Origin: an uncultured Planctomycetota bacterium
GTDB taxonomy: Bacteria; Planctomycetota; Planctomycetia; Isosphaerales; Isosphaeraceae
Assembly (NCBI GenBank): GCA_963818975.1
Contig: CAWFUI010000015.1
Coordinates: 230,979 to 294,978 of the forward strand
DNA length: 64,000 bases
Reading direction: 5' to 3'
Part shown: positions 18,619 to 63,787 of the stretch, piece after piece
How the letters are laid out: every line of letters begins with the position of its first letter
Position numbering within the stretch: position 1 is the first letter of the stretch
Made by a program: the position numbers and the translations under genes
The notes under the pieces: generated by a model
Database searches by the model: none
What the model was told of the DNA's origin: nothing
What the model saw: only the letters and a program-made list of their open reading frames with translations

Positions 18619-18910
18619 GCTTCGTTCCGGACTTGGTTGGGTCGCCTTTTTCCGCCCACTATGGGGCGATTTCCGATCAGCCAGCATGATCGGACAAGCC
18701 AGGCCGGTCCAGCCCAGCACCGCCAACTCGACGCCCAGGACGGCTTTCGTCAACGAATTTCGGTGTAAGGAAGATTATCGGCGAGATTGCAAAAACGCTG
18801 GCGAAAGGGTTATGTTGGGGTCGATTCCGGTTCTATGAACCCGGTCGACCCGAACGGCATGGGCGCGACCCGGGCGGGTCTTTGTTTCGAGACGGAGCAG
18901 TGCGAACGAA

Positions 18911-21455: not shown

Positions 21456-23379
21456 ATGGCTTCTGGACGTTACGACGCCGATTCGATCACCGTATTGGAA
21501 GGCCTGGAGGCCGTTCGCAAACGGCCTGGGATGTACATTGGAGGCGTCGACAAGGAGGGTCTGCACCACCTGCTTTGGGAGATCGTCGACAACTCTGTCG
21601 ACGAGGTGATGAACGGCCACGCCTCGAGGATCGTCGTCTCGATTGCCAAGGACCATCGCGCAGCGACCATCTCCGACAACGGCCGAGGCATTCCTGTCGA
21701 CATTGTACCCAAGACAGGGCTTAGTGCACTCGAAGTGGTCTTCACCAAACTCCACGCCGGGGGCAAGTTCGATAACGACGCCTACAAGGTGGCCGGTGGA
21801 CTGCACGGAGTGGGCGCCAGCGTCGTCAACGCGCTCTCAAAAAGCCTCGAAGCCGTCGTCAGGCGCGACGGCCGCACCTACACCCAGCGTTACCGTCGCG
21901 GAAAACCCTTGGGCCCTATCGAAAAGGGCGAGCCCGCGCGGGGAACGGGCACCACGGTCACCTTCTCTCCAGACCCCGAGATCTTCCGAGAAGTCGCAAT
22001 TCGACGTATTGCTTATTGCCGAACGTCTGGATGTGAAAACGTACTTGAATAAAGGTTTGGTGATCCAGCTCGTCGACGAGAAGACCGGCCAGACGACCGA
22101 ATTCCAGCATGCGGGCGGCGTTGTCGACTATCTCGACTCGATCAATAAAGAACGGGACGACCAGCGCGTCTCCCCTGCCCCTTTCGTGCTCGAGCGCGAA
22201 GACTCCGATGAAGGGATCAAGCTCTCGCTTGCCTTGGCTTGGACCGAGTCGACCGACGAGGTGTTGAGGTCTTTCGTTAACACGATTCCCACGCGCGACG
22301 GCGGCACTCACGAACAGGGCCTGAGGGATGCAGTGGGCGCCGCGATCAAACGGTTCATGAGCCATCACGACGTCGTCAAAAAGGGCATGGAGATCAAGGG
22401 CGAGGACATTCGCGAAGGACTCACGGCTGTCCTTTCGATCTTTGTCCACGAACCTCAGTTTCAAGGACAGACCAAGGGCAGACTGAACAATCCGGAGGTC
22501 AAGGCCCTGGTCGATTCGATGGTCAGGCCCAGGCTCGAGGACTATCTGCTCAAGAACAAGAGCATTGGCGACGCGATTGCAGACCGCGTGATTCGTGCAG
22601 CCAAGGCTCGCGAGGCGAGCCGAGCCGCGGCGTCCCAGGTTCGCAGAAAGACGGCGATCAGCGGCAAGCTCAATTTGCCTGGGAAGCTGCACGACTGCGA
22701 TTCGACCGATCCGGAGATCTCGGAGCTCTTCATCGTCGAGGGAGACTCGGCGGGAGGCTCTGCAAAACAAGGACGCGACCGCGACGTCCAGGCCATCCTT
22801 CCGCTAAAGGGCAAGGTCTTGAATGCCGAGCAAGCTGGCAAGGCCAAGGTGCTCGACAACAAGGAACTGACCGATATCGTCAGCGCCCTGGGCTGTGGAA
22901 TGGACGACCAGTATGACGTTGGCAGACTGCGCTATGGGAAGGTCATTCTCCTGACCGACGCCGACAGCGACGGCCACCACATCGCCACGCTCTTATTGAC
23001 CTTCTTCTACCGGCATCTTCCCGGTCTCTTCGAAGGCGGGAAGGTCTACCTGGCATGTCCACCGCTTTACAAAATCAGCCATGGACAGGAAACCCACTGG
23101 GCAGCCGACGACGCCAACAAGGCGAGGATCCTCGACTCTCTGCCCAAAAACGCGAAACCGAACATCACCCGGTTCAAGGGTCTTGGCGAGATGCCCGCGA
23201 AGCTCTTGTTCGAGACGACCCTCGACCCCCGCAGACGAAAACTCTTGAGGGTGGTCGTCCCCGACGACGACCGCCCCTACACCGAGAGCACAGTCAGCGA
23301 CCTGATGGGCAAAGAACCCGAAGCCAGGTTCAAGTTCATCATGGAAGAGGCGTATACGGCCAAGGATATTGATATCTAA
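21456..23379 (+). CDS. type IIA DNA topoisomerase subunit B (GyrB/ParE family); frameshift near 21985
   Basis: [26 protein letters not shown] (GHKL ATPase), then in the second frame [29 protein letters not shown] (Toprim) and ...[10 protein letters not shown]. Confidence 0.85.
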
Positions 23380-44407: not shown

Positions 44408-46108
44408 CTAGGCCGATGGGCCCTGCGATGGATTTGATTCCAACGGTGTGTTGTTGATTGGGTGGCCTTGGATCACGTCGTTTCGCGTGACCAAGGCGTT
44501 TTCGGCGACGATCGGCTCGATGTAAGTCACTGATTCGCAAGCAATTTGCGTCCCCTGACCATTCGAACCCAATTTTTCGGCGTCCTCAGAGGGCGTGACA
44601 GGTGTCTCGCCCCTACAGGGATGGGAATCAATCAGCGTAGGGGCGGATCCCCCGATCCGCCCTCCGGGGTTTCGAAGGCCATCGCCGTATGAAGAGGGCG
44701 TGACAGGGGTCTCGCCCCTACAGGGATCGGACTCAATCAGCGTATGGTCGGATCCCCCGATCCGCCCTCCGGGGTTTCGAAGGCCATCGCCGGCTGAAGA
44801 GGGCGTGACGGGGGTCTCGCCCCTACGGGATTGGGACGCCAGTACGGATTCGCAAACAATTTGCCTCTCCTGACCATTCGAACCCAATTCTTCGGCGGAC
44901 ACAGAGGGCGTGACGGGGGTCTCGCCGGTACCGGGATCGGAATCAATCAGCGTAGGGGCGGATCCCCCGATCCGCCCTCCGGGGTTTTGTAGGCCATCGC
45001 CGTATGAAGAGGGCGTGACGAGGGTCTCGCCCCTACGGGAATCGGACGCCAGCACAGATTCGCAAGTAATTTGCGTTTCTTGAGTCCGCCGGAGGCGGAA
45101 ACCCAATTCGTCGGCCGGCTCGTCGTCGACAACGGGGTCGTCTTTATGGAGGTGAGACTTCTCCCTCACGTAGGCGTCGTCGGTATCGCGATACACCAGG
45201 TTGTGCCTTTTGTCCCAAGGCGGAGCTGAGTCCCAATCGTACTCCTCCTCGGGTTCGCTCGCTGCCTGGGCCTGCGCCAAAAGCTCGGCCTCTGCCCGCT
45301 TCTTGGCTCGATGTTCAGCAAGGGCCTTCTCGAGTTGGCGATCCTTCTGAATTTTGACCGCAGCCAGGCGCTTATCAGCATCGAGCAGGCCCGTCGTGGA
45401 GAGCAGGAACTCGAGATCGTCGTCGTCGTACTTGGTCTTGAACTCGTCGACGAGCATTCCGAACGTCGGGGTGCTCGGCGCTCGCATGCTCAACTTCTTG
45501 CGTTCGAGCTCGAGCCTCTCTGCCCTGTGGGCATCGTTCTTGCGTTCGATCCGCCGTTTCTCGAGCTCGCGATAGGCACGAAAGAACCCGCGTTCGAACG
45601 AATTGTAATAGCGGAAATAAGCCTCGATTTGAGGCTCGGTCAGGTCGATCCTCAGCCATGCTTCACGAGCGGCCTCGCGATCGAATCCTGGTTCTTGCAA
45701 CCCGAAGCATTTCAAGCTCTTCAGTCGTTGGGCGATCGCAGGCCGGTCGTCGATGTCGATCTTTCTGCCTTCTCGATGCCCGATCAGGTTGGCTGCCTTG
45801 TGCTCGACCTGGGTGTCCTGTGCCAGCGCCAGCATCATCGCGGCCCGCGATTGCTTCCAGAGGCACATCGCCGCCTTCTCGGCGAGCTTGAATTCGACGT
45901 CGCCGACGGGCTGAGTATCTTCAATGTAGGCTTGCAAGTGTGCCTCCCAGTCCTCGTCGAACTCGAGCGACCGGAGGACGATCTCCTCGGACCGAAGTCC
46001 GTGTCTGAGAGCGTTTTTGGACGATTTTGCTTTGCCTTCGGGCGTCTTGGGACCGGTGGACCGCTTCGCATGTCTTGCGTTTGCGTAAATCTGAGACGGC
46101 GTTGCCAT
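44408..46108 (-). CDS. hypothetical protein; charged/coiled-coil N-terminal 330 aa followed by about five in-frame 35-aa tandem repeats (RGETPVTPS...GDGLRNPGGRIGGS...)
   Basis: 566-aa ORF. The N-terminal part has ordinary composition. The C-terminal 3' third is encoded by a 105-bp tandem DNA repeat that maintains the reading frame. Confidence 0.45.
   Translation of the reverse strand: MATPSQIYANARHAKRSTGPKTPEGKAKSSKNALRHGLRSEEIVLRSLEFDEDWEAHLQAYIEDTQPVGDVEFKLAEKAAMCLWKQSRAAMMLALAQDTQVEHKAANLIGHREGRKIDIDDRPAIAQRLKSLKCFGLQEPGFDREAAREAWLRIDLTEPQIEAYFRYYNSFERGFFRAYRELEKRRIERKNDAHRAERLELERKKLSMRAPSTPTFGMLVDEFKTKYDDDDLEFLLSTTGLLDADKRLAAVKIQKDRQLEKALAEHRAKKRAEAELLAQAQAASEPEEEYDWDSAPPWDKRHNLVYRDTDDAYVREKSHLHKDDPVVDDEPADELGFRLRRTQETQITCESVLASDSRRGETLVTPSSYGDGLQNPGGRIGGSAPTLIDSDPGTGETPVTPSVSAEELGSNGQERQIVCESVLASQSRRGETPVTPSSAGDGLRNPGGRIGGSDHTLIESDPCRGETPVTPSSYGDGLRNPGGRIGGSAPTLIDSHPCRGETPVTPSEDAEKLGSNGQGTQIACESVTYIEPIVAENALVTRNDVIQGHPINNTPLESNPSQGPSA
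44590..45115. repeat. tandem repeat, ~105-bp unit x 5 in two alternating flavours, containing short hairpins (CGGATCCCCCGATCCG)
   Basis: Units begin GAGGGCGTGAC(A/G)GGGGTCTCGCC at ~44590, 44694, 44799, 44903 and 45008. Flavour X ends ...GGTTTCGAAGGCCATCGCC. Flavour Y carries GATTCGCAAACAATTTGC...CCATTCGAACCCAATTC, which also occurs once just upstream at 44531-44580. Confidence 0.8.
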
Positions 46109-47094: not shown

Positions 47095-47391
47095 AACTTG
47101 CATCAATCGCTGACACACAGGATCTCTGGCTGTCGGTGGGCTGGCGAGTCGAAAAATCGGCGCCGCGGGGTTCCAATTTCCTGGGCTCGCTATTGACCAC
47201 TGCCGACGCCTCGGCGGGTAAGCTGTAAGCGACCGTTTGCAGGTCTCCGAATCGCTCCCAACGACATTCCCCGACAGTCCCAGATTGTCTGCAACCATTC
47301 CCCGGATCTGGAAAGGCCATGTGCTTTTACGGCTTTTTTCGAAACGAACGGACTAGTAAGATAAGTGCACAGTGTTTCAGAGTATCAACAA

Positions 47392-47979
47392 ATGAATGAA
47401 ACAAATCCCAAGGTTGATTTTTATTTCAGTAAAGCCACGAAGTGGCGGGAAGAATATGAGCTGTTGAGAACGATCGTTCTCGACTGTCAACTAAGCGAGG
47501 AGCTGAAGTGGGGTTGTCCGTGCTACACGTTTCAGAAAACGAACATCGTTTTAATTCATGGATTCAAGGAGTATTGCGCGCTTCTGTTTATGAAAGGCGC
47601 GTTGTTGAAAGACTCCAAGCGCCTTCTCATCCAACAAACGGAGAATGTGCAGGCTGCTCGGCAGATTCGGTTCACCAACCTCAAAGAAATCGTCAGGATG
47701 AAAACGATCCTGAAAGCCTATATTCAGGAAGCCGTTGAAGTCGAAAAAGCCGGTTTGAAAGTGACACTCAAGAAGACCAAAGAATTCGCCGTTCCCGAAG
47801 AGTTTCAAAAGAAACTGGACGAAAACCCTGGCTTGAAGACTGCTTTTGATGCGTTGACGCCTGGGCGACAAAGAGGATACATCCTTCATTTTTCCGCGCC
47901 CAAACAATCGAAAACTCGGGAGTCGAGGATTGAAAAATGTATGCACCAGATTCTTAAAGGAAAGGGATTAGAGGATTAG
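47392..47979 (+). CDS. YdeI/OmpD-associated family protein (DUF1801-like N-terminal plus YdeI C-terminal); conspicuously low GC (~45% versus ~62% surroundings)
   Basis: MNETNPKVDFYFSKATKWREEYELLRTIVLDCQLSEELKWGCPCYTF...GRQRGYILHFSAPKQSKTRESRIEKCMHQILKGKG. It has AAA/GAA-rich codon usage unlike its neighbours. Confidence 0.7.
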   Translation: MNETNPKVDFYFSKATKWREEYELLRTIVLDCQLSEELKWGCPCYTFQKTNIVLIHGFKEYCALLFMKGALLKDSKRLLIQQTENVQAARQIRFTNLKEIVRMKTILKAYIQEAVEVEKAGLKVTLKKTKEFAVPEEFQKKLDENPGLKTAFDALTPGRQRGYILHFSAPKQSKTRESRIEKCMHQILKGKGLED

Positions 47980-48024: not shown

Positions 48025-48437
48025 ATGACTGGGAGTATCCCAATCGCCGCCAAACAGAGCGGGAAGAAGTCGGTTGCGCGCCCCGGCCCTCGAGCGGAAA
48101 AGGCAGTCGGGGAAAGTGCAGTGCTCGCGAATCTCGCCGAGACGCCCCAACCGGATCGCGCTTTAGGCGAAAGGCTGCATGTGATTATCAAAGCCAACGC
48201 TTCTGCACTTTCGCCCAGGCTCTGGTACGGGATGCCCGCGTATGCCAAGGGCGGCAAAGTCGTTCTCGCTTGTTCCAAAGCGCGCACAAGTTCAAAACAA
48301 GGTACGCGACGCTTGGCTTCATGCACGAGGAGAACCTCGACGATGGCGCGATGTGGCCGACCGCCTTCGCAGAGAAAGCTTTGACTCCCGCCGACGAGGC
48401 GAAGAGCGCGGTGCTCGTGGAGCAAGCAGTGAGCTGA
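48025..48437 (+). CDS. DUF1801 (YdhG-like) family protein; one apparent frameshift near 48268
   Basis: ...[40 protein letters not shown], then in the next frame [55 protein letters not shown]. Confidence 0.65.
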
Positions 48438-48562
48438 GGCCTGCGTCATTCGTCTAGCCAACGAACCTCCATGTTGACTTCGATTGGCGATGGCTTTCCT
48501 GGCTCACTGCGATCGGTTTGTGCGATCGGTTTCGTGACCATTGACATCGAGAGCCCGGCTTA

Positions 48563-49873
48563 TTACTTGGCGTCCACCTTCTCGTGCGAGACGTGCAGGC
48601 GCCCTGCCAATCTCGTCAGGTCCGATTTCTCGGGCGACTTCGCAGTTTCTTTCTTATTTCCACCGGCGGAGACGGCGGCCTCCGCGAAGGCCTTGCCGAT
48701 GGGAGCGAGAATCTTGGCCGCGCCAAGGTAGTGGTATCCGCCGTTGGAGACGCCCTTCAGGCGTTTCCATTCTTCCGGAGTGAAGTTCTGAGCCATGATC
48801 TTCATCTTGTTCTCCCATGAATCCGCATTTGGATTTTTCTTCTTCTCCTCGGCGACCTTCGCGTCCACCTTCGGCCAGTATTTATCCATTCTCTGTTGCA
48901 GGGCGTCCAGGTCTTCGTCCCAGAAGGGGGCCGTCTCCACCGCCACCACGTTTCCCTTGAACTCGTCAAGTGTTGTAGGTTTGATCTGGGCCTGGCGGAA
49001 GTGCATCTGGGGGGCCTTCTTCCCCTCTTTCTCGCCGCCAATCCCCATGACGCCGATGACGAACGGCATCTTCGGGGCCGAGAGGTCTTTCCGCACGTCG
49101 CGGATGAGGTGCTCCAGGAGTTCCGTGTATAAGTCATACCCGCCGGGTTTCATTTGCTTGTCGTAGGTCCAGTCGGAAACGTAATCGTTGAAACCCTGGA
49201 ACCAGACGAACCCTGCCAGTTCGTACCCCTGCTTCTCGTCATAGTCCGGCGCCACCCGCTTGATGTCCTTGAGCACCTTCTTCGCGTGCCCGATCATCTC
49301 GCGGTAGTACACGCCTGTGGCCTTCTCCTTCTCGGCCTTGATCTTTTTCAGGTCGTCGCCCCGCTGTTTGCACTGGGCCAATTCGTACTCGCTCCACACG
49401 TAGGGCCCTGCGCTCGGCGGGCGGAAGTCGGTGTGCAGGCTCCGACCGCCCCACGAGGTCTTGATGATGAGCACCGGCTCGTCGAGCAGCTTCTCCATCG
49501 TGATGCCGAAGGTGAACTCCGGGCCGATCTTGTCCTCTGGCGCCCCGAACCCGGCCGTCAACTTGCCTTTCGCCTCATTCAAGTCCGAGTAGGCGTCGCC
49601 AAGGCAACCGACCGACGTGATCCAGACCTTTTCGCACACCTTAGGCTTGCCGGCCTTGTCCCGCATTTCCTCGAGCAGCGGGGCCGTCTTCGGGTCGTCG
49701 GCCATGGAATCAAAAGTCGAGATCCTCGCGTGCCCCTGCATGTTCGACTGCCCTGCCAAGATAAACACCTTCAGTGGCTTGTCGCCGGCGGACGCAACAT
49801 TTGCGTTCAAGGCCAGCCCCAAAACAGTCAAACCAAAGGCCAGCGTGTCAAAGCACCTTTGCAACAAAGCCAT
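48563..49873 (-). CDS. secreted sialate-O-acetylesterase-like SGNH hydrolase (DUF303/carbohydrate esterase family)
   Basis: Signal peptide MALLQRCFDTLAFGLTVLGLALNANVASAG, then KVFILAGQSNMQG (DUF303 catalytic Ser motif) and ...WFQGFNDYV. Confidence 0.8.
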   Translation of the reverse strand: MALLQRCFDTLAFGLTVLGLALNANVASAGDKPLKVFILAGQSNMQGHARISTFDSMADDPKTAPLLEEMRDKAGKPKVCEKVWITSVGCLGDAYSDLNEAKGKLTAGFGAPEDKIGPEFTFGITMEKLLDEPVLIIKTSWGGRSLHTDFRPPSAGPYVWSEYELAQCKQRGDDLKKIKAEKEKATGVYYREMIGHAKKVLKDIKRVAPDYDEKQGYELAGFVWFQGFNDYVSDWTYDKQMKPGGYDLYTELLEHLIRDVRKDLSAPKMPFVIGVMGIGGEKEGKKAPQMHFRQAQIKPTTLDEFKGNVVAVETAPFWDEDLDALQQRMDKYWPKVDAKVAEEKKKNPNADSWENKMKIMAQNFTPEEWKRLKGVSNGGYHYLGAAKILAPIGKAFAEAAVSAGGNKKETAKSPEKSDLTRLAGRLHVSHEKVDAK

Positions 49874-50242
49874 AACAGCAACTCCTGACAGGGGACCAGA
49901 GAAACGTTTGGACCGATCGTACGAGCGAATGATTCTCCTTAGCCGAAAAAGCGATTCTATAACAGGACCTCGACGCTTGAAATGATCGGGATACGGATCG
50001 GTCATCGCACAATCGTGCACTTCGAGACAGTCTGCGATCGGCAGTCTCTTTTGCAAGGCAGCACCTTAAACCAAATCGAGCACCTGAACTCCCAGACTGT
50101 CTGCGATCAGCGCCCGAAGTGCGCCCACGTCGCTGGAACCGAGTCAGGCGCATTCAAGACGTTTCGCAACGTTGCGGCCAGCCATTCCAGTTCGTCTTTT
50201 GTTAACTGCACGCCAAGCAAAACATCGGTTTCATCAACAGAA

Positions 50243-50785
50243 TTATTTTGTGTGCATGCGAATATCATAGTGATAATATGTGCCGAACTCGCCGTCGCTT
50301 TCGAGTTGGGAAACGACGCGAAGCCACACGATTTCCGAATTTCGCCAGATTTTGGTCGTAGTACCCTTCCACCCAAAGATCGTGCGAGTCAGCTTCTCGC
50401 GACTGGCCACTAGCATGAAACCCCTGTGCGCGGCCCTGAAATTGTGATTCGACCAAAACACGCCGGCGAGGCTGACGCCAATCGACATCAGAATGGCTGC
50501 GGGATAACTCTGTTGGCGCCCGTCATCCATCCACGGGACGCCGTTCGACCAGTAATGAATCAGCCGGACGGCTTCGATCAGTGGCAGCACGATTAACGTC
50601 GCGGCCATGATCATGGCTATGACAAATCCCGCGTCACAACCGGACGCTGCAGCTCCGATGCGGATATCACCGTTCTTGAGATATTCGAGTTTGATCTTAG
50701 AATCACGGGGCGGGGGCAATCGCTCGCTTTTCTCGATCCCGATCAGGCTCTCTCCTTGCATCGCCTCGCCGGCCACGTTGCCCAA
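50243..50785 (-). CDS. hypothetical membrane protein
   Basis: 180-aa ORF with 3 predicted TM helices (FVIAMIMAATLIVLPLI, AAILMSIGVSLAGVF). Moderate GC, no domain match. Confidence 0.35.
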   Translation of the reverse strand: MGNVAGEAMQGESLIGIEKSERLPPPRDSKIKLEYLKNGDIRIGAAASGCDAGFVIAMIMAATLIVLPLIEAVRLIHYWSNGVPWMDDGRQQSYPAAILMSIGVSLAGVFWSNHNFRAAHRGFMLVASREKLTRTIFGWKGTTTKIWRNSEIVWLRVVSQLESDGEFGTYYHYDIRMHTK

Positions 50786-50940
50786 CTCCGGGTCGATTCC
50801 TAAAACCTTGCTGCGATTCGATACATCGTTTCCATGTAACAGAAGCTCTCATGTGGGAAGCAATAAATCAAGTTGCGGGGCTTTCGAACCTGACGGCCTT
50901 TCGAACCTGACTGTCTGCGATCGGTTTCCCTCCTTGCAAC

Positions 50941-51698
50941 TCACTTCCATTGCAACGGATCCTCCGCTCGACGAAACAAATCCACGACCCAGCAGCCACG
51001 AACATGCGGCCCATCACTTCGGCAATGCTGCATGATAGCCGCGTTATCGCATCCTGCCTCAGCCAGAGCCGTTGCGAGCTCTGGTAAGCGTCCGAAAGAT
51101 CTGCCTAGATCAATCTCTTCGGCGAGTGCGAGGACGGCGGCCGTTCTCCACTCTTCTTGAACAGCGGCGAGGTGGAATGGGTTGCCGAGGATGTCGTGCA
51201 GGAGCGCCAGCACTGCACTACGCGTTCTCGTTCCGCCGCTCGTTCCCCAGCGTTCTCCCGGACTGCGGCAACGGCCCAGCGGCTCGCATCATATGCGGGG
51301 GACAGAAACGGCGTCCGCATCGAGTCAAAAGCCGAGTCCACACCGCTCGACAAATCCGCACACGACCGGGCTGCCATTGAAGCAGGCGTGCAGCTTTCAT
51401 AACTGCCCAAATCCTGAAACCATTTTTCCATTTCGCCACTCACGGCCAGCATTTGCGGGTAGGTTGCTTTCCCATCGGCGAACTGCTCGACGATCCGTAT
51501 TGCATTCAGCCAGCGAGCGTCGTCGACGAAAGGCCCCATACGACGACAGCACGCACTTCCCCAAAGGAGACACTGGCGATCGGTTGCAATGACACATCGT
51601 AAGCTCCCTTGTGGCCCACGAATCCGTTCGAGTGGACCAGCAATATGTTCGAGCATCTCCCATGGATCCGTAAAAGCCATCCATTCCGGCTCGGTCAT
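50941..51698 (-). CDS. hypothetical protein of a Planctomycete-expanded family (Cys-rich CxxxxxxxACCRR N-region and C-terminal HVRGCWVVD motif); one frameshift near 51200
   Basis: MTEPEWMAFTDPWEMLEHIAG...LRCVIATDRQCLLWGSACCRRMGPFVDDARWLNAIRIVEQFADGKAT..., then in the second frame ...LALAEEIDLGRSFGRLPELATALAEAGCDNAAIMQHCRSDGPHVRGCWVVDLF. Confidence 0.4.
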
Positions 51699-52161
51699 GA
51701 TTCACCTCCCACTTTTCCACGATTGCCGGACCATTCATCCCGTCAAGTACCCAGGGCAATCTCGTGGCGCCTATCCGTTCAATAGGATCTCTGCTACCAG
51801 GTTTCCGGCTTGAAAGCTCACTCCTCGACAAGATCGGGATTCCCCTCCGCTCTCAAAGACTCTAACGATCGTGTGCGCGACCTTGGACGCTCTTCGATTG
51901 TTACCGGTACGCCCGAAATCGATCCCCCAGGATGTTCTGACGAACTCAGCACCCAAACTTCCAGACAGTCTGCGATCTGCACCCGTTACCGGTACGCCCG
52001 AAATCGATCCCCCAGGATGTTCTGACGAACTCAGCACCCAAACTTCCAGACAGTCTGCGATCGGCACCCAACATCCAGACAGTCTGCGATCGGCACCCTC
52101 TGCGATCGGCACCGTCTGCGATCAACGCCTTGACCGGGGTCAGGGCTTGGGAAGGCGATTG

Positions 52162-52733
52162 TCACGGCTTTCTTTTGGATTTCCTACTTGCACCATAACG
52201 TAGCCCATCGACGAGCAGAGAAACCATGCGGCGAGCGTGATCGGGACCCTGAGCGTAGGCATGCATGCACAAGCTTGCGACCGCACCCAAGAGTTCCTCG
52301 GCAGTGACATCGGTGCGGACTTCGCCGGCGGTCGCGGCGGACTCGAGAAGTTTTCCAAGTGCGGGTTCGAGTCGCTTCTCGAAGTAGGCGGGCAAGCTGT
52401 CGAAGGCCGGGTTTCCCGAATGCAGGGCCGCGGCAAGCCCACGTTTGGTGGCAATGAAGGCGGCGTATCGCTGCATCCATCGCGCCAGCGCCTCGCCAGG
52501 CTCGTGCTCGGCAGCCAAGCTTTGTGCAGCGTCGGCGCAGGCATCGATTTCATGGCGGAAGACGGCCGCGATCGAGGTCGGACGCGCTGCGGAAAGTGGC
52601 GATAGAACGTGCCGATGCCGACGCCGGCCTTCTCAGCGATCTCTCTCACCGGGGCATCAACGCCAGAGGTCGCGAACACCGCCATGGCCGCCTCCAGCAA
52701 CGCGTCGGTATTGCGTTGCGCGTCGGCGCGCAC
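52162..52733 (-). CDS. TetR/AcrR family transcriptional regulator; one apparent frameshift near 52550
   Basis: N-terminal HTH MRADAQRNTDALLEAAMAVFATSGVDAPVREIAEKAGVGIGTFYRHFPQR. The C-terminal ligand-binding domain is in the adjacent frame (...LARWMQRYAAFIATKRGLAAAL...ELLGAVASLCMHAY...). Confidence 0.75.
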
Positions 52734-52810
52734 GGGCCGATCTGCGCTGCCGCGAGGCTCCGAGTTCCATCAGCTTTGTTCTTTTCAATTGTCGCTCACC
52801 ACGCCTCCAC

Positions 52811-52856
52811 TTGACAAGCGGAACAGTGTTCCGTATAAATCCGGAACAGTGTTCCG
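52811..52856 (+). promoter_or_regulatory. sigma70-like promoter TTGACA-N18-TATAAA overlapping two identical 15-bp perfect palindromes CGGAACAgTGTTCCG (putative TetR operators) in the tetR and SDR divergent intergenic region
   Basis: TTGACA at 52811-52816 and TATAAA at 52835-52840. The operators lie at 52819-52833 and 52842-52856, spaced 23 bp centre to centre. They sit between the divergently oriented tetR (start 52733) and SDR (start ~52920) genes. Confidence 0.65.
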
Positions 52857-52919
52857 TTTGAGTCGAATTAGCACAGCAGGGCTGCTCTGCACGACACATC
52901 GATGAACAAAAAGGAGATG

Positions 52920-53689
52920 ACTATGCAAGATAAACGCCGTCGCCCTGGTCACCGGGGCCAATCAAGGAGTCGGTCTTCAGGTCGCAAAGGAACTGGTGGC
53001 AGCACGGCTTCACTGTGCTGGTCGGGTCGCGCAATTTCGAGCGCGGCGAGGCCGCGGCCAAGGAGATCGGGCCGGGCGCCATCGCGCTCCAGCTCGACGT
53101 GACGGATCAGGCTTCGATCGCCGCCGCGGCGGAGCGCATCCGCAAGGAGTTTGGCCGCCTCGACCTGCTCGTCAACAACGCGGCTATCTCGAATACAAGG
53201 AAGCGGCCGGCTTGTCCCTTCGGGAGTACGCGCAAGATAAGCCTGCCCGAGCAACGTGTCCCTCGATGAAGTGCGCGCGGTGTGGGAGACCAACGTGTTC
53301 GGCGTCCTCGCCGTTTACCAGGCGATGCTGCCGCTCCTTGCGCGAGTCGTCGGACGCCCGCATCGTCAACGTGTCGAGCGGCGTTGGCTCGCTGACGCAG
53401 CAACGCGGACCCGGCCTATCCCTTACCAGCGCGATCTTCGGCCCCGTTTACCCTGCGTCCAAGGCGGCTCTCAACGCCATGACGCTGGCCATGATGATCG
53501 AACTGGAGTCGACCGGGATCAAGGTCAACCTGGTCTCTCCAGGGCTTCACCAAGACGAACCTTAACGGATATGCGGGCACGGAGTCAGTCGAGGACGGCT
53601 CCCGCGAGGTGGTGCGCGTCGCGCTGCTCGGCCCGGACGGCCCGACAGGTACGTTCACGCGCTGGGAAAACGTAACGATCCCGTGGTGA
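52920..53689 (+). CDS. short-chain dehydrogenase/reductase (SDR) family oxidoreductase; at least three apparent frameshifts
   Basis: ALVTGANQGVGLQVAKELVAA (TGxxxGxG), ...LLVNNAAI, ...PVYPASKAALNAMTLAMMIELESTGIKVNLVSPG (YxxxK), ending ...WENVTIPW. The frame slips near 52935, 52990 and 53555. Confidence 0.65.
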
Positions 53690-54052
53690 TGAAGTGGCGG
53701 GCACGTGTTAATGGGCTCGGCCCGAACTTCCAGGCAGTCTGCGATCGGCGGTCCGTGGTGATGAAGTGGCGAGCGCGTGTTAATGGGCTCGCCCGAACTT
53801 TCAGACCGAACTTTCAGACAGTCTGCGATCGGCCTCAAGGAACATGTCGCACGATTTCTTCAGACAATGCCGGCATACCACTGCTGGTCTCATCAGTTCG
53901 TCGGCATCTCACCAATTTTGGATGCAGATCATCGAGCGACGCTTACCAACCACGACATCATTCCGCAGGATTTGAACGATCTAACGCTCGGCTTGGAATA
54001 GTGTGCACCGGGAGCAGAACGCCGTAAGGCCAAGCTGAATGAGCTCTCTACC

Positions 54053-54643
54053 TCAGACGCTCTTTGATCGTTCCCGGTAAGCCCCCAAATCGATCCCCCA
54101 AGAGGTCCGGACGATTTCCGGGACGACGCCGAGGGTCGCTTTGTCGTCCGCCCACTTCAGAATTTCGGCGCGTTTCGCAGCGTCGGTGCAGAGTCGGTCC
54201 GGGCGAGGGGTGATGCCTACGCGACCAAGGTCGAGCCGATCGGCGTCCCAGCAGGTCTGGATCGTGACGTCAGGATGGGTACGCTCGTGAGAGTGCCCTG
54301 TGCAGGCAGAGTGCAGAAGGTGAAACTCGTGGTCAGGCAGGTCGAACAACGTCCCTCGCACCTTCAGTGCGAATGCGGCGGCGCGAGGTCCGTGCTTGGG
54401 ATCGCCGCCTTCATTAACCCGGCGGCAGTCGTGCAGAATGGCAAAGAGCTGCACGACGTCGACGCTGGCCCCAGTTTCCTCGGCCAGCCTAAGCCCGTTT
54501 TCCAGAACCCTTGCCCAGTGGGCGATGCCATGATCGCCGTCCCAGGGAAGGACATACCCTTCGAGGATGCCGTGGAGTATCGAGGTGATGTTGAGTGTGG
54601 GCAATTTAATTGCTTCTCGTTGAGGCGCCTCGTCTCCGCACAT
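54053..54643 (-). CDS. HD-domain metal-dependent phosphohydrolase-like protein
   Basis: H...HD...D pattern: GDHGIAHWARV ... FAILHDCRR ... CWDADRLD, 196 aa. Confidence 0.55.
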   Translation of the reverse strand: MCGDEAPQREAIKLPTLNITSILHGILEGYVLPWDGDHGIAHWARVLENGLRLAEETGASVDVVQLFAILHDCRRVNEGGDPKHGPRAAAFALKVRGTLFDLPDHEFHLLHSACTGHSHERTHPDVTIQTCWDADRLDLGRVGITPRPDRLCTDAAKRAEILKWADDKATLGVVPEIVRTSWGIDLGAYRERSKSV

Positions 54644-55095
54644 GATCTTGTATCATTATTGGATCTTAAAGAAGCTTATTCGTCCCCCGCGGGCTGGTCA
54701 ATCGGGCGCCCACGAATCTGTTAGTTGGTGCTCCGTCGATTCAGGAAGGCCCCCGTTGGCTGTCCAACGTGACGAACGTACAGATTTCACATCCTCGAGA
54801 GTATCGCGCAAGATTGAATTGTCCTTAGCTAGAGGCTTCGACCGCCTCGATCGGCCCGCCGCGGTTCCCCATTGGGCGTTGTGCCGACATTTTGTGTTTC
54901 CGCTCCTCGAGGATCTCAAGTCCCGGAGCGTTCGAGGCTGTTCGACGAGCCAAGTCGTCGATCGGCCGCGTTTGGTCGTCAATTCCCTTTCGATAGGAGG
55001 CGCCAGTGCGCTCGAGTCGCGGAGTGTTCCTGAGATTCTCGTTTTTGTCATGGGTTCGAGGAGTCAAAAGACCTTTATCACTTCCGGCCTACGAG

Positions 55096-55497
55096 ATGGA
55101 TCGATTCTATATCGCGGGATTTCAATACCACGAAGGTCCAAGGGTTCTGGACAGGATGACCGAGGGGCAGGAGTTGACGCTCGTTCGCGAGCCCACGAAC
55201 CCGCACGACGACCGTGCAGTCGCTCTCTTTTGGAAGGACCGGAAGATCGGCTACGTTCCATGCAAACGGAACCACGCGATCGCTCGGCTTGCCGATCAGG
55301 ACGCCCCGCTTTCGTGCAAGGTGACCGTTGTCGATCGATACGCCAAAACGTGGGAGGCTGTGGAAGTCTCAATCGCGATCCAGACTCAAGCCGTCGCAAG
55401 CCCTTCTCGCATCGAGAAACGATGGCTTTTCGGTGTGTCGATCGACACGCGCAACTCGGCGGTCGTGGAACTCGACGATCCAGTCTATCTGGGGTGA
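55096..55497 (+). CDS. standalone HIRAN-domain protein
   Basis: MDRFYIAGFQYHEGPRVLDRMTEGQELTLVREPTNPHDDRAVALFWKDRKIGYVPCKRNHAIARL matches the HIRAN consensus (GxxYxxG...L.L.REP.NPhD..Ai.V......IGYvP). Confidence 0.7.
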   Translation: MDRFYIAGFQYHEGPRVLDRMTEGQELTLVREPTNPHDDRAVALFWKDRKIGYVPCKRNHAIARLADQDAPLSCKVTVVDRYAKTWEAVEVSIAIQTQAVASPSRIEKRWLFGVSIDTRNSAVVELDDPVYLG

Positions 55498-55808
55498 CGC
55501 AGCTCCCGATCGACGCGAATTCTGGAAAACCAAAACATCAGGCACTTGACGAATGTCCGGGAGTCGGTTAGCCTCCAAGTACGACTTTCGTAAGAAGGCA
55601 GAAAAAAGAGGCTAAAGTTCGCGTCTGATTTGTTCAGTCGATTCATTTTGCGTTCAATCTCGAACGACGTCGGGCGAATGGATTTCTTTGGCAGTGCTCG
55701 TTTCGTCCGCCAGGCCTTTCGAGCCGCTCCGTTGAGAGGACGTTTGCAAATGGTTATGGTTGCGCGGGACGGGGTGGGGTTTTGGGCGGTCGGCTGCTCG
55801 CCTCGACG

Positions 55809-58800
55809 ATGCTTACGCTCGCGATTTTGAACTCCTGGGCCCTCGGCGCACGTGCCCAGCAGGACTCTGATTCCGCAAAGTCGTCTCAGCTTTTCGCGGG
55901 TGCTGTAGAAGAACCTTTCTCATTCGAGCAGAACACTTCGACGACGTTTGAAAGCCGTTTCTCGGAGATCTGGGCGGCTGCGTTTCGCCCAGACGGAAAG
56001 ACCGTTGCGATTGCCTCTGGAAAATGGGACAGACCTGGCTACCTGAAGATCTACGACGTCGAGACGCGGAAGGAACTCGTCAATCTCGCCGCTGCCAATA
56101 ACGCTTGGATTCGCTGCCTGGCGTTCACTCCCGACGGCAAGACCCTCGCGACCGCGGAGAACAGCGAACTGAAGCTCCGCGACCCAGCCACCGGCGACGA
56201 GATGCGAACGATCAAGTGCAAAGACGGCAGGATCGACGCATTTGCCTTTAGCCCCGACGGCAAGTTTTTCGCCACAGCGAAGAACGACCAAGTGAGAGTC
56301 TTCGACCTCGAGAAAGGCGCCGAGCAGTGGCACGCCAAGGCGCACGCAGGTGGGTGCTACGCGGTTGCCTACTCGACCGATGGGAAATGGGTCGCGACCG
56401 GCGGTGCGGACGCTCAGGTCAAGAGCTGGGACACGGCGACACACAAAGAACTCAAGACGTTCAAGCCTCCAAAGGCGGTTCCGGGGTCGTTCAATTCTTG
56501 GCAGTGAGTCCGGACGGGACGAAAATCGCCTCGGCTTCTTGGGACAAGACGATCACGATTTGGGATGCCTCGGAAGGCAAGGATCTGGCTCGACTTGAAG
56601 GGCATGCGGAAGCGGTTTTGGCCGTGGCATTTTCGCCCGACGGCAAGACGCTGGCCTCCAGTAGCGGTCGATGGGGAGGAGGCGAATCCAAGCCCGCGAC
56701 CCCGACGCCGAACCGCCGAGGAGCCCAACCCGCCGCCCCAGTGGCGGACGAAACGACCGTCCCGGGAGAGGTCAAGACCTGGGACCTGCAAACGTATAAA
56801 GAATCGTCGTCTTGGACCGCGCACAACGACCGGGTCTTTGCGCTGGCGTATAGTGCCGACGGCAAGACTCTTGCGACGGGAAGCTGGGACAAGACGCTCA
56901 AGCTTTGGGACCCAGCCAACCGCTCCGAGCTCGCCTCTCTACCCCCCATCGCCGAGATCGAACAGCCCAAGATCATCCTGGCAATGGCAGCCTCGCCGGA
57001 CGAGAAATGGCTCGCAACCGGCGGAGAGGACAAGATCGTAAGAGTTAGGGACGCGCTGACTGGGAAGATGAAATTCGCGCTCACTGGGCATCAAGACGCC
57101 ATTGCTTGTATTGCGTTTAGTCCCGACGGCAAGACGCTCGCGACAGGCAGTTTCGACCGTGTCGCCAAACTTTGGGACGCCGAGACGGGTAAGGAGCGGG
57201 CGACGCTGAAAGGACACAAGGGCTGGGTGCTCTGCATGGCATTCTCACCCGACGGACAATTTTTGGCGACGGGAAGCTATGACAAAACAATTCGGCTCTG
57301 GCATGTGGCCGACGGCCGCGAATCGGGCTCGCTCGAAGGCCATCGCGCCGCAGTGCGCGGGCTCGCTTACGCACCCGACGGCAAGACGCTCGCCTCCGGC
57401 GGCGGCGACCGATTGATCAAGATCTGGGACTTGGAGTCGCTCAAGGAAAAAGCCAGCCTCAAGGGGCACAAAGGCGGCATTCGCGGAATCGCCTATAGTC
57501 CTGACGGTTTGACCATCGCCTCGTCTGGGGAAGACAACGTCGTCAAGCTCTGGGACGCGGGGTCCGGCAAAGAACGAGCCACGCTTTCAGGCCATAACGA
57601 CATCGTCTGGTCGGTGGCGTTCTCGCCCAAGGGCGGAACCTTGGCGTCGGGTTCGTTTGACGGCATGGTCAAAGTCTGGGATCCCGTCGCCGGGGTCGAG
57701 GTCGAGACGCTTCAAGGGCACTCCGACGCGGTCTCTTCGCTCGCGTTCGCCGATCAGGGACGAATGCTCTATACGGGCGGGTACGACAAGCTCGTTCGCA
57801 CGTGGCATCCCGCCACTCCCACGCTCTCCCCGTTCGCGACGCTCCGCGGCCACAAGGGACAAATCTGGTTCGTCAAATACTCTCGCGACGGGTCTCTTTT
57901 GGCCAGCGGCGGAGAGGACGGGACGATCCAAATCTGGAACGGTCGGACGCGTCGATTTATGAAAAAAATCGACATGATGGGTTCCGTCCCACTCAATGCT
58001 GTGTTCACGCCCGACGGTCTCTTGCTGGCCACCTCTTGCCAGGACGGGTTGATTCGCTTGTGGAATCTGAATATGGGCGAATGCGTGAGCGTTTTGGAGG
58101 GGCATTCCAAAAGCGTCCCTGGGTTGGCGATCTCCGCCGACGGCAAATTGCTCGCGACCGGCGGGCTGGACAGGACCATTCGAATTTGGGACGTCGATTC
58201 GAGGCGCGAGCTAAGAGTTTACTCCGAGCAAGCCAGTCCGATCAATGCGGTCGCCTTCAGTCCGGACGGCAGGACTTTGGCTTCCGCGTCGGGCTCGGCG
58301 AACGAGCAGGGACCTGGCGAGGTCAAGCTCTGGGACGTGGCCACGGGGCGCGAGCTCAATTCGCTGGCGGTGGTCAAGGGGGAGCATAGGCCGATCCACT
58401 CGGTCGCCTTCGACGCATCCGGCAAGTATCTGGCGGCAGGCGGCGACGAACAGAAAATCCGTGTTTGGGACCTCCAGGAGATGAAGGCCCTCGAATCGAT
58501 ACCGGTCAATTTCCGAATTCGAGAGGTCGCGTTTGCACCTCGTGGATTGTTCGTCGCGGCTGGCGGCCAAAACGGCTCGTTGGCGTTGTGGGAGACGACG
58601 ACGAAACGCAAGAAGCTCACCCTTCAAGGCTACCCTGGTCAGATCAACGGGTTCTGTTTCTCGCCCGATTGTTCGACCGCGGCGTGCGTGGGAGGCGACG
58701 ACTCGATTCGCCTATGGGATCTTACTCCCAAGAAAAAGCCCGAGATCATCTGGAAGAACGGAGCGGCGCTTGGCGTCTGCTATTCTCCAGAAGGAGATCG

Positions 58801-60671
58801 GATAGCGATCGCCGCCGACGACAAGACAGTAAGGATCCTCGACGCCTCGACAAAGAAGGAAATCCGCAAACTCTCAGGCCACTCGAAGCGCGTCTGGTCC
58901 GTGTCGTTCAGCCCAGACGGCAAGCTGCTGGCGTCCTCCAGCGGAGATTACGAAAAACGCAACGAGGCGGGCGAAATCATAGTCTGGGACCTCGACTCCG
59001 GCGCCCAAAAGGCTGTGCTCAAAGGGCACACAGCGCCGATTTTCATGGTCAAGTTCAGCCCGGACGGTAAACTGCTCGCGTCGGGCTCGTGGGATTCGAC
59101 CATACGTCTCTGGGACGTCGACTCGCTGAAAGAGAAATGCGTGCTCAGCGGTCATAAGGACGGCGTAAGAGCGCTCGTGTTCCTGGTCGACGGCAAGACG
59201 CTGGTTTCGGGCGGATACGACGGCCACGTCAAATTCTGGGACGTCGCCGCGCAGAAAGAAGTCGGCGACGTCGCCGCCCATAACGTGGGGATCAACGGTC
59301 TGGCGCTCTTCACCTGACGGGCAGACCTTGGCGACGAGCACTTCGCCGGCCGCGAACAACCCGAACAATGGTATGCAACAACAGGCAGGCGAGATCAAGC
59401 TTTGGGACGTCGCCAAGAAGACGGAAACGGCCAAGCTTGCAGGGTTGACCGCGCCTGCGCTTTGTCTGGCGTTCAGCCCCGACGGTTCGATGCTGGCCTC
59501 TGGAGGAGGCGTCTACGGTCAGTCGTCCGAACTGCTCTTGTGGGACCTCAAGTCTCGAAGCATCCGCGCGAGGCTCGCTGGGCACGTCCGCTGGGTTGAG
59601 GGTGTTGCGTTCTCGCCCGACGGCAAGTCTCTAGCGGCCGTCGGCGGCGTGAGCAGCGCTCCTGGCGAAGTTGTTATCCACAACCTGCGAGACCTTAAAC
59701 GTGCAGCCCTAAAAGTTCTTGCTGGCTCGCCCCAGCCGATCTGGCAGCTCGCCTATAGTCCCGATGGAAAACGCGTGGCGGCAGGTACTGGGGATTACAA
59801 AAACCCGGCGAACGTCCTGGTCTGGGAACTTTCGGAAAACAAGCTCGAGCAGACGCTCAAGGGCCATGCCAACGGCATTGGGTCTTTGGCGTTTCGCGGC
59901 GACGGCAAGTACCTCGTTAGCGGGTCTTGGGATCAAACCGTCAAAATCTGGGACGCGGCCGCCTGGACCGAGAAGACGACGCTCAAAGGGCACGCAGCAA
60001 AGGTCAAGGCCGCCTTCACTCCGGACGGCAAGTTCGTGGTTTCCGCGAGCGAAGACAAAGAGATCCGGATTTGGAACTTTGAGGACGGCAAGCTCGTCAA
60101 AACGTTGAAGGGGCACGAATACCCAATCCTTTCCATGGCGATCAGTCCCGACGGGCGGATTTGCGCCACGGGAGCCGGCAAGCTCGAGAACGAGGGCAAA
60201 GGCGGGGAACTGAGGCTCTGGGATCTGGTCGAAGGCAAAGAGCTCGGCAAGCTCGAGGGCCACACGCAAGCGGTCCGCACCTTGTCGTTCAGTCCAGACG
60301 GGTTGACGCTGGCGACGGGCGCCTCCGACCACACGTTGCGACTCTGGGACGTATCGAGTAAAACCTTGATGCGATATGCTGGCGCATTCGAAGCCAATGT
60401 TTATCGGGTTTATTATTCCCCTGACGGTCGAGTTTTGGCGGTTCTGTTCGAAAACGATCCTGCGGTTCATCTTTTCGATTCGACAAGTTTGGAAGAGTTG
60501 ACGGTGCTTGAAGGGCATCCTCAAGCGTGTTATTCCGCGGCGTTCAGCCCAGACGGCCGCTTTCTGGCGACCGGCGGCCTGGACATGTCGGTAAGAATTT
60601 GGGACGTCCAGGCGGCTCTGGACGCCGCAAGGACTAGCGGCACGGATTCAAACGGGAGCTCGATTCCATGA
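55809..60671 (+). CDS. giant secreted WD40-repeat protein (~1,620 aa, about 28 or more WD40 blades, i.e. multiple beta-propellers); two apparent frameshifts (~56475, ~59312)
   Basis: Signal peptide MLTLAILNSWALGARAQQ. WD40 units are repeated throughout, e.g. GHAEAVLAVAFSPDGKTLASSS, GSWDKTLKLWD and GHKGWVLCMAFSPDGQFLATGSYDKTIRLWH. Three track ORFs (55782.., 56327.. and 59328..) join after single-base corrections. Confidence 0.8.
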
Positions 60672-62424: not shown

Positions 62425-63787
62425 ATGAAACGAACGAGCGCGGATGATCTGGGTTCGAGCGTCTCCAGACGCGACTGGATGAAACTGGCCGCCGCGGGCT
62501 TCTCCGCGTTCTCGGCTTCCGGCTGGATCGAATCGCTCGCGGCCAGCGCCGCGGCCGACCCAGCGCGGAAACGGGCGTGCATCTTGCTATGGATGAGCGG
62601 CGGGCCAAGCCAGATGGACACCTTCGACATGAAGCCAGGCCACGCCAACGGCGGGACGTTCAAGCCGATCGACACCGCCGTTCCAGGCATACAGATCTGC
62701 GAGCATCTGCCGAAGGTCGCCAAGGAGATGAAAGACGTCGCCATTATCCGCTCGATGAGCACGAAAGAAGGCGACCACGGCCGAGCGACGTACTATCTGC
62801 GAACCGGTTATACTCCCCAAGGCGGCATCCAGTTCCCGACCATGGGGTCGGTGCTCTCGAAGGAGCTCGAGGAGGCGACTTCGGACCTGCCCAGTTTCAT
62901 CAGCGTCGCCCCGTTCAAATTCCTGAGCCCAGGGGCGTTTGGACCTGGATTCCTGGGGCCCGCGATACGCCCCACTTGTGGTTGGCGACGTCGGTTTCAA
63001 CGTCCCCCAGGGCAACGCTTACGAGCAGGCCCTGAAGGTCGGAGATCTCGATCTGCCTGGCGGAATCAAGCTAAACCGCTCCGACGCACGTTTGGGCTTG
63101 CTCGAAGGAGTCGAGCGAGACTTCATGGCCAACAGGCCCGCCGGATCGCCGCTGGCGCATCGCACGGCGTACGAACGCGCGGTCAAGATGATGCGATCTC
63201 CGGCCGCCAAGGCGTTCGATCTGAACGAGGAATCGGGATCTCTCCGCGACGCCTACGGCCGCAACCTGTTCGGCCAGGGTTGTCTCCTGGCTCGCAGGCT
63301 TATCGAGCGTGGGGTTCCCTTCGTCGAAGTCTCGCTCAACGGCGTCGACGGCGGCGGCAACATCGGCTGGGACACCCACCAGCAGAATTTCGACAGCGTC
63401 AAGAAGCTTTGCGGCACCCTCGACCCAGCCTGGTCGACCTTGCTCCAAGACTTGCGGACCAGAGGCATGCTCGAATCGACTCTGGTGGTTTGGATGGGCG
63501 AGTTCGGCAGGACGCCTCAGATCAACGGTCAGGGGGGCAGAGACCACTTCCCCAACGCCTGGACGACCGTCCTTTCCGGCGGCGGAATCAAAGGCGGGCA
63601 AGCGCACGGCAAGACCTCGGCCGACGGCACGATGGTCGCCGACAACCCTGTGACCGTTCCCGATTTTATGTCCACCATCTGCAAATCGCTGGGCATCGAT
63701 CCGATGAAGCAGAACATGTCGGACGTCGGCAGACCCATTCGAATCGCCGCTCCCGAGGCCAAACCGATCAAGGAGCTGCTCGCGTGA
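62425..63787 (+). CDS. DUF1501-domain protein (sulfatase-like fold, Tat signal); one apparent frameshift near 62950
   Basis: Tat-type N-terminus MKRTSADDLGSSVSRRDWMKLAAAGFSAFSASG, ...GGPSQMDTFDMKP. The second frame has ...GWDTHQQNF...WMGEFGRTPQINGQGGRDHFPNAWTTVLSGGGIKGG, which are DUF1501 signatures. Confidence 0.8.

Follow-up and report, generated by a model that had tools for sequence, protein, structure and literature searches.

A short element repeated in one orientation between unrelated gene segments in an uncultured Planctomycetota bacterium

Introduction

What does it mean when a short, partly palindromic sequence recurs in one small zone of a bacterial genome, always on the same strand and repeatedly at the edge of a tandem duplication? 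The question is raised by a 64,000-nucleotide stretch of DNA (hereafter the window) from an uncultured Planctomycetota bacterium of the family Isosphaeraceae (assembly GCA_963818975.1, contig CAWFUI010000015.1, positions 230,979 to 294,978 of the forward strand), in which the 18-mer CAGACAGTCTGCGATCGG is clustered within a few kilobases. The original prediction, made from the letters of the window, offered three options: a repeat of the repetitive extragenic palindromic (REP) or miniature inverted-repeat transposable element (MITE) kind, a recombinase or nuclease target, and a DNA-binding-protein array. To our knowledge, mobile-element biology in Planctomycetota is barely charted. Here we describe the element and the DNA between its copies and weigh what may have produced the array. 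Our answer, which we favor tentatively and would not call probable, is that the elements form an array of double-stranded sites of recombination or breakage, which remain from the insertion of small foreign segments one after another.

Results

Copies of the element share one orientation and one zone. Alignment of the copies gave a consensus of about 37 bp, AGCACCCGAACTTCCAGACAGTCTGCGATCGGCACCC, of which the 18-mer is the core. Allowing at most three mismatches, the 18-mer matched eight times in the window, all on the plus strand between 50024 and 53832, against 0.03 matches expected by chance, and eight matches were reached in none of 100 shuffles. A search with the core GTCTGCGATC added a truncated right half at each of the positions 52098 and 52114, and two further right-half copies, TGCGATCGGTTTG and TGCGATCGGTTTC, were found at 48508-48533, 1.5 kb to the left of the zone first reported. 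The total is therefore 12 (eight full copies and four right halves), all on the plus strand between 48508 and 53837, with none in the remaining 58.7 kb of the window. When the eight full copies were turned into a profile, only these eight came out as significant (E <= 1.4e-6), and no minus-strand copy was found in the window either by this profile or at three or fewer mismatches. Likewise, all nine occurrences of TGCGATCGG in the window are on the plus strand and within 48.5-53.8 kb. The strand bias and the confinement described in the original prediction were thus upheld, whereas its count of at least 11 copies falls to 10 within its own zone of about 3.8 kb, and that zone leaves out the two right halves on the left. 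Spacings between elements range from 16 to 1869 bp. The right 18 nt of the element are the better conserved among copies (13-18 of 18 positions), and the left 19 nt match at only 7-18 of 19.

Both palindromes that had been described as abutting, CAGAC-N-GTCTG and CGATCG, are present in the consensus. Among all palindromic hexamers of the window, the second shows the strongest over-representation (110 observed versus 20 expected), and because it is over-represented throughout, the half resembling the highly iterated palindrome HIP1 is a genome-wide signature and not specific to the motif. The part specific to the zone is the combination of CGATCG with CAGAC-N-GTCTG. More broadly, CGATCG, TTCGAA and CTCGAG are 4-5 fold over-represented in the window, and CCTAGG and CAGCTG, each expected about 20 times, do not occur at all in the 64 kb, a pattern that looks like restriction-site avoidance together with a strong palindrome signature. 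Outside the core, non-adjacent copies have right-flank variants in common, GGTTTC at 48521 and 50916 and CA(G/A)CGCC at 50093 and 52114, as if each segment had arrived with its own half-site.

Duplication junctions fall at two positions of the element. We placed the junctions of eight local tandem duplications on the coordinates of the 37-bp element. Six of the eight lie after position 36-37, at the right edge (...GGCACCC|); these belong to the 85-bp, the 29-bp, the two 16-bp and the approximately 70-bp duplications, and to a 13-bp duplication at 48508. Among these junctions, the restart point varies widely. The other two junctions, of the 17-bp and 13-bp duplications of the left half, lie after position 18-19, at the centre of the palindrome. 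The 29-bp unit is flanked by GCACCC direct repeats. In the approximately 70-bp duplication, 53681-53733 and 53753-53804 are 92% identical and are followed by the motif, and the TGA stop codon of a short-chain dehydrogenase (SDR) gene at 53687-53689 lies inside the duplicated unit. It had been claimed that copies sit at the edge of duplicated segments, that one duplication takes in the SDR stop codon, and that four copies form a micro-array, and all three statements agree with what was found. The three tandem duplications that had been named also exist, with sizes of 16-17, 85 and about 70 bp in place of 14, about 86 and about 72 bp. All copies, duplications and genes of the zone are listed in Table 1.

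Table 1. Element copies, tandem duplications and genes in and beside the array (coordinates are those of the window).
Feature	Coordinates	Strand	Remarks
Right-half copies, two in tandem (TGCGATCGGTTTG, TGCGATCGGTTTC)	48508-48533	+	29 bp beyond esterase 3' end
Element copy 1	50010-50046	+	27/37 to consensus; left half degenerate
Element copy 2	50079-50115	+	32/37 to consensus; right flank CAGCGCC
Element copy 3	50893-50929	+	Right flank GGTTTC; preceded by left-half micro-duplication
Element copy 4	51948-51984	+	In 85-bp duplication
Element copy 5	52033-52069	+	In 85-bp duplication
Element copy 6	52062-52098	+	Followed by two truncated right halves
Truncated right halves	52099-52114, 52115-52130	+	Each unit from copy 6 on ends in GGCACC(C/G) or a variant
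Element copy 7	53717-53753	+	In ~70-bp duplication
Element copy 8	53801-53837	+	In ~70-bp duplication; 13-bp left-half micro-duplication
16-17 bp twice, left half of element	50878-50911		Runs into copy 3
85 bp twice, 99% identical	51900-52069		Carries copies 4 and 5
Run of whole and half elements	52033-52130		2 full and 2 truncated copies; periods 29, 16, 16 bp
~70 bp twice	53681-53837		SDR stop codon, GC-rich hairpin and element; copies 7 and 8
13 bp twice, left half of element	53793-53819		
SASA-type sialate O-acetylesterase, segment 1	48563-49873	-	Intact; exact 436-aa protein on record
69-bp unit			Between esterase and ORFan, bounded by elements
ORFan, 177-180 aa, segment 2	50243-50785	-	Hydrophobic stretches
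Hypothetical protein, segment 3	50941-51698	-	Overlapping open reading frames 50941-51213 and 51105-51698; apparently frameshifted
3'-terminal fragment of HD-family gene, 59 bp	51886-51943	-	83% identical to 54056-54114
TetR-family regulator, segment 4	52162-52733	-	N-terminal domain in 52140-52733, C-terminal part in 52162-52518; apparently frameshifted
Twin palindromic operator, CGGAACAGTGTTCCG twice	52822-52860		Between divergent TetR and SDR genes
SDR, segment 4	52923-53689	+	Divergent from TetR gene
HD-like gene, 196 aa, outside array	54053-54643	-	Intact; 3' end 215 bp from last element copy

The DNA between the elements is a mosaic. Elements occupy the boundaries between unrelated gene-sized segments, which have GC contents of 0.51, 0.58, 0.54, 0.57, 0.63 and 0.52 and for which segment comparison found no homology to one another beyond the elements and an HD gene fragment. 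The minus strand carries five of the six genes, and past the 3' end of each of these five lies an element, at distances of 29, 127, 11, 31 and 215 bp. The esterase gene has its best named homologues in Gemmataceae, and identity to its nearest homologue is no more than 83%. Among 5.8 billion proteins the ORFan has no homologue but itself, and the hypothetical protein of segment 3 matches no family. The SDR gene is about 80% identical at the nucleotide level to a gene on plasmid pSBC2-1 of Caballeronia sp. SBC2, with the homology stopping at the stop codon. Alignment over about 780 bp with this intact homologue shows at least 15 gap openings in the SDR gene, which stands out despite the indels of the assembly. 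Modules of the TetR-SDR kind are frequent on proteobacterial plasmids, and this one resembles the pairs found on plasmids of Rhizobium, Aureimonas and Paraburkholderia.

The HD fragment is the 3' end of an HD-family gene, and an intact gene of this family is located 2.1 kb from it, in the same orientation. Its truncated side adjoins element copy 4, and it is repeated in the 85-bp duplication (51984-52028). An origin of the element from HD coding sequence (the reading frame through it is ADRRLSGSLGAEF) was considered and discarded, since identity in a manual comparison drops to about 32% (middle 28 nt) beyond the block of true homology. The intact gene belongs to a very widespread and highly conserved uncharacterized family of about 180 aa, with thousands of soil-metagenome members that are 70-82% identical; the protein had no Pfam match above threshold (HD domain at 18 bits versus a cut-off of 22) and no NCBIfam match.

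Beyond the array on the right are this HD-like gene, a HIRAN-domain open reading frame (ORF) and WD40 genes. The small HIRAN-domain ORF (55006-55497, plus strand), beside the HD-like gene, matches the PADLOC candidate defense family PDC-M03B (E = 1.8e-16). On the left, an apparently frameshifted short ORF that resembles YdhG/DUF1801-type proteins (48025-48437, plus strand) lies just before the half-elements at 48508, and an intact DUF1801/OmdA gene is at 47365-47979; the variable zone may extend leftward beyond the array. The window is planctomycete, and families encoded in it include PSD1, PSCyt2, DUF1501 and DUF1559.

The repeat pattern is probably not an artifact of assembly. A Logan short-read contig of 1054 bp (run ERR11523675) is 100% identical to 50151-51204 of the window, which includes the element copy at 50907 and its micro-duplication, so that read-based support covers one copy with its micro-duplication. 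Read-level evidence of artifact had been named as a possible refutation, and the reads instead reproduce this part exactly. One end of the contig is 41 nt from an element copy and the other is at the overlap of the ORFs of the hypothetical gene, and these ends may reflect a fall in coverage or branching at the strain level. The assembly is not free of error in other respects. The genes for lon, pckG, gyrB, a giant WD40 protein and a DUF1501 protein are each split into adjacent or overlapping ORFs (4700-6864, 16804-18753, 21456-23379, 55782-60671 and 62577-63787), which indicates residual indel errors. Broken ORFs are present in the zone as described in the original prediction, and the similar frameshifts in these other genes weaken what can be read from them.

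The element matches none of the known classes that were tested. DNA-fold z-scores for the element with its flanks ranged from -0.8 to +0.9, and a single element scored -0.01; it thus has no stable fold, which fits a double-stranded protein site. Pairs of R'' and R' boxes as in attC (RYYYAAC...GTTRRRY, 50-150 bp apart) were absent from 48-55 kb on both strands in a pattern search, and the whole window holds two such pairs, at 341-434 and 8350-8465. In an Rfam scan the element matched no family, and the sole match to clustered regularly interspaced short palindromic repeats (CRISPR) was sub-threshold, at 47797, and unrelated to the element. No tRNA or tmRNA was found, and the repeat does not appear to be of tRNA origin. 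A promoter and terminator scan found no promoter-like signal at the copies. The earlier remark that the element could not be placed in any known class agrees with the negative results for attC, REP, MITE, CRISPR, Rfam and tRNA.

Several candidates were rejected individually. A CRISPR array, with its regular spacers of 25-70 bp, does not agree with spacings of 16-1869 bp, and there was no relevant Rfam match. For a MITE there is no inverted partner, and the GCACCC with which the 37-mer starts and ends belongs to the 29-bp tandem period. A terminal inverted repeat of the Tn3 family (38 bp, GGGG...TAAG) was dismissed for lack of an inverted partner and of a transposase. The minus-strand pattern GGGTGCC..CGCAGA..GCTGAG bears what we take to be only a loose likeness to the repeats of that family. 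Reverse transcription as the origin of the nested units, which look 5'-truncated, was set aside because the TetR-SDR pair retains its divergent promoter region and a reverse transcriptase is lacking.

Searches of sequence collections revealed no second array. The exact 18-mer had five single matches among 185,579 species genomes, all inside coding sequence and at chance level, and 13 single matches among JGI/ENA metagenome contigs; the 17-mer with a central N had 12 single matches among IMG/VR viral contigs. None of these searches returned an array. A blastn search with the 37-mer against plasmids and phages gave chance matches only. The database matches are single, limited to the core and mostly within genes, and a profile search of the matched loci found similarity only in the core that had been used to find them. 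The translated repeat zone had one spurious low-complexity match among 1.84 billion representative proteins. A comparison of synteny and empty sites around SASA and HD homologues found unrelated contexts without arrays; protein identity to the nearest relatives is no higher than 77-83%, and these are not syntenic.

Discussion

Array and tandem duplications together may point to a site at which DNA is broken and joined. In the reading that we tentatively favor, the element would be a double-stranded recognition and breakage site for a site-specific recombination or nicking activity, encoded elsewhere in the genome or since lost. The zone from 48508 to 53837 would be an accretion array of small horizontally acquired segments, each with one gene or a divergent pair, which would have been joined serially at the element with a same-orientation copy left at every joint and would later have decayed by frameshift and truncation. 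Recurrent breakage or exchange at the right edge and at the CAGAC|N|GTCTG centre could then have given tandem duplications of half-sites, whole sites and flank plus site. This reading is suggested by the single orientation and single locus, by copies at the joints of compact segments of different composition, by content that is foreign or ORFan, by the HD 3' fragment beside a copy with its intact paralogue at the array edge, and by the recurrent breakpoints. Direct repeats flank compositionally foreign DNA, as is asked of att repeats, and the scar that integrative elements usually leave is a duplicated gene 3' end.

Among the three options of the original prediction, a recombinase or nuclease target is the one best fitted by the junction positions, the two fixed breakpoints and the abutting HD fragment. 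The sequence itself shows the anatomy of the array, its orientation, the junction positions and the mosaic content; recombination as its origin, exchange at the palindrome centre or right edge, and a dedicated enzyme are inferred.

Several results weigh against this account. A scan of about 55 ORFs over the 64 kb turned up no integrase, resolvase, transposase, HUH nuclease or reverse transcriptase, no Phage_integrase or other recombinase domain, and no integrase remnant. Sites of tyrosine recombinases have two inverted arms around a 6-8-bp spacer and those of serine recombinases have a 2-bp centre, and the element has neither architecture. Some of the "segments" are just 16-85 bp, too short for elements. 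Broken ORFs are weak evidence of decay because housekeeping genes elsewhere are also frameshifted, and a polar gradient of decay along the array was looked for and rejected, the best copies being the recently duplicated ones in the middle. In addition, no second array appeared in the genome, metagenome, viral, plasmid and phage collections, so that any mobility is putative. The weight of the case is limited by one locus in one metagenome-assembled genome (MAG) with indel errors, with no enzyme and no comparator, while the pattern itself is clean and unusual. The element falls in no class tested, and its placement as an att-repeat accretion or cassette array with an unrelated site is the most economical.

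A more specific form of this proposal is an undescribed gene-capture system of Planctomycetota, in which single-gene cassettes would be joined at a double-stranded site of about 37 bp by exchange at CAGAC|N|GTCTG, in place of a folded attC, by a recombinase or nickase encoded elsewhere in the genome. We regard this as improbable. More exotic still would be a variant in which each insertion duplicates the repeat, by analogy with CRISPR adaptation or casposon integration. Should the element prove to be a functional site of recombination, the locus would be a cassette-type site of gene acquisition unrelated to attC or to tRNA-derived att, and the element could be used as a lead to its enzyme.

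The best surviving alternative, although we consider it rather unlikely, is a local fragile site with no dedicated gene capture. The element, alone or bound by protein, would stall replication or be nicked, and fork collapse followed by microhomology-mediated restart would yield nested tandem duplications with one fixed edge and occasional templated ectopic insertions. Six of eight junctions at one edge of the element with the other edge variable are what this mechanism predicts, the GCACCC repeats around the 29-bp unit are ideal for slippage, tandem duplication gives an all-direct orientation automatically, and the motif is private to this locus in genome, metagenome and viral searches. The kilobase-sized segments, however, are mutually unrelated and hence not duplicates, slippage leaves the unrelated genes between copies unexplained, and the compact one-gene segments and the HD 3' fragment are not accounted for. 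Were the locus no more than fragile or prone to slippage, and so a local curiosity, it would nonetheless illustrate how one short motif can seed complex nested duplications.

A binding-site array for a dimeric protein, whether operator, iteron- or centromere-like, or for a nucleoid or silencing protein on a foreign island, with the duplications incidental, is in our judgment unlikely. The 11-bp palindrome with CGATCG, the lack of single-strand structure, and the clustered, intergenic location of the copies all agree with it, and the 16- and 29-bp tandem spacing at 52033-52130 recalls iterons or arm-type sites of integrases. Binding would not need the strict one-strand orientation of an asymmetric 37-bp element, however, and the only regulator in the zone, TetR, has a different twin operator. 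The copies coincide with no promoter-like signal. This option of the original prediction thus fits the palindrome and the spacing but leaves the junction positions, breakpoints and duplications unexplained.

Spread as a non-autonomous repeat of the REP, REPIN (REP doublet forming hairpins) or MITE kind, by a REP-associated tyrosine transposase (RAYT) or another transposase elsewhere in the genome, is very improbable. Such an origin would suit a short, partly palindromic, intergenic element that often lies just past stop codons, and the genome and metagenome searches make it private to the species, as REP families usually are. The REP/MITE option is nevertheless disfavored by the absence of a stable hairpin (z about 0), of inverted doublets and of terminal inverted repeats, with 12 of 12 copies direct, and by the confinement of all copies to 5 kb, the 58 kb of flanking DNA having none. 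The window also has a separate, truly hairpin-forming family headed by GTAG at 44.6-45.05 kb. This REP/REPIN-like cluster (44588-45050) is a tandem 105/210-bp repeat with GTAGGGGCG(G/A)...CCCC units in alternating orientation; eight units headed by GTAGGGGCG, four per strand, were counted against 1.0 expected, and they form long hairpins (z = -2.55). The cluster is inside a 566-aa ORF (44408-46108, minus strand) with no family match and is unrelated to the 37-bp element.

Least credible of all is consensus stutter in a long-read MAG, for which the frameshifted genes and the nearly perfect 85-bp duplication might speak, and against which stand the exact short-read match, the substitutions and internal 13-bp insertion by which duplicate units differ, and the setting of the dispersed copies in unique sequence.

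For tycheposons, serial integration is described as building islands in which remnants of att are scattered and degraded elements contain only cargo (bioRxiv 10.1101/2020.12.28.424599). The array is similar to such islands, and to tandem integration at one att site, in its same-orientation repeats within a small variable zone, in the degenerate, cargo-only remnants between them, in the duplicated 3' end of a flanking gene family, and in its foreign or ORFan content. It differs in that the repeat is not a tRNA or recognizable gene end, no integrase or remnant of one is present, the segments, at 0.07-1.6 kb, are far smaller, and no second genome gives a sign of mobility. With REP sequences, bacterial interspersed mosaic elements (BIMEs) and REPINs the element shares its short length, partial palindromy, intergenic location, species specificity and frequent position 3' of genes, but it has no fold, a single orientation and one locus, and no RAYT gene or Y1 transposase was seen in the window. 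Compared with arm-type integrase sites or iterons, the element also occurs singly, kilobases away, with no int, xis or rep gene, whereas the tandem direct repeats at 52033-52130, with 16-29-bp spacing beside a gene 3'-end fragment, are alike. Clusters of attC sites lacking integron integrases (CALINs) differ from the array in their RYYYAAC...GTTRRRY pair and imperfect hairpin, where the element has a length of about 37 bp and a double-stranded character, and segments in the array, whose 5' flanks measure 120-260 bp, could contain promoters of their own. Even so, the array shares with CALINs its single-gene units, co-oriented genes, site-like repeats past stop codons without an adjacent integrase, ORFans and short gene-less units, and the pattern by which CALINs are recognized, at least two same-orientation sites that each follow a co-oriented ORF, is seen here for five of six genes, 11-215 bp past the stop codon.

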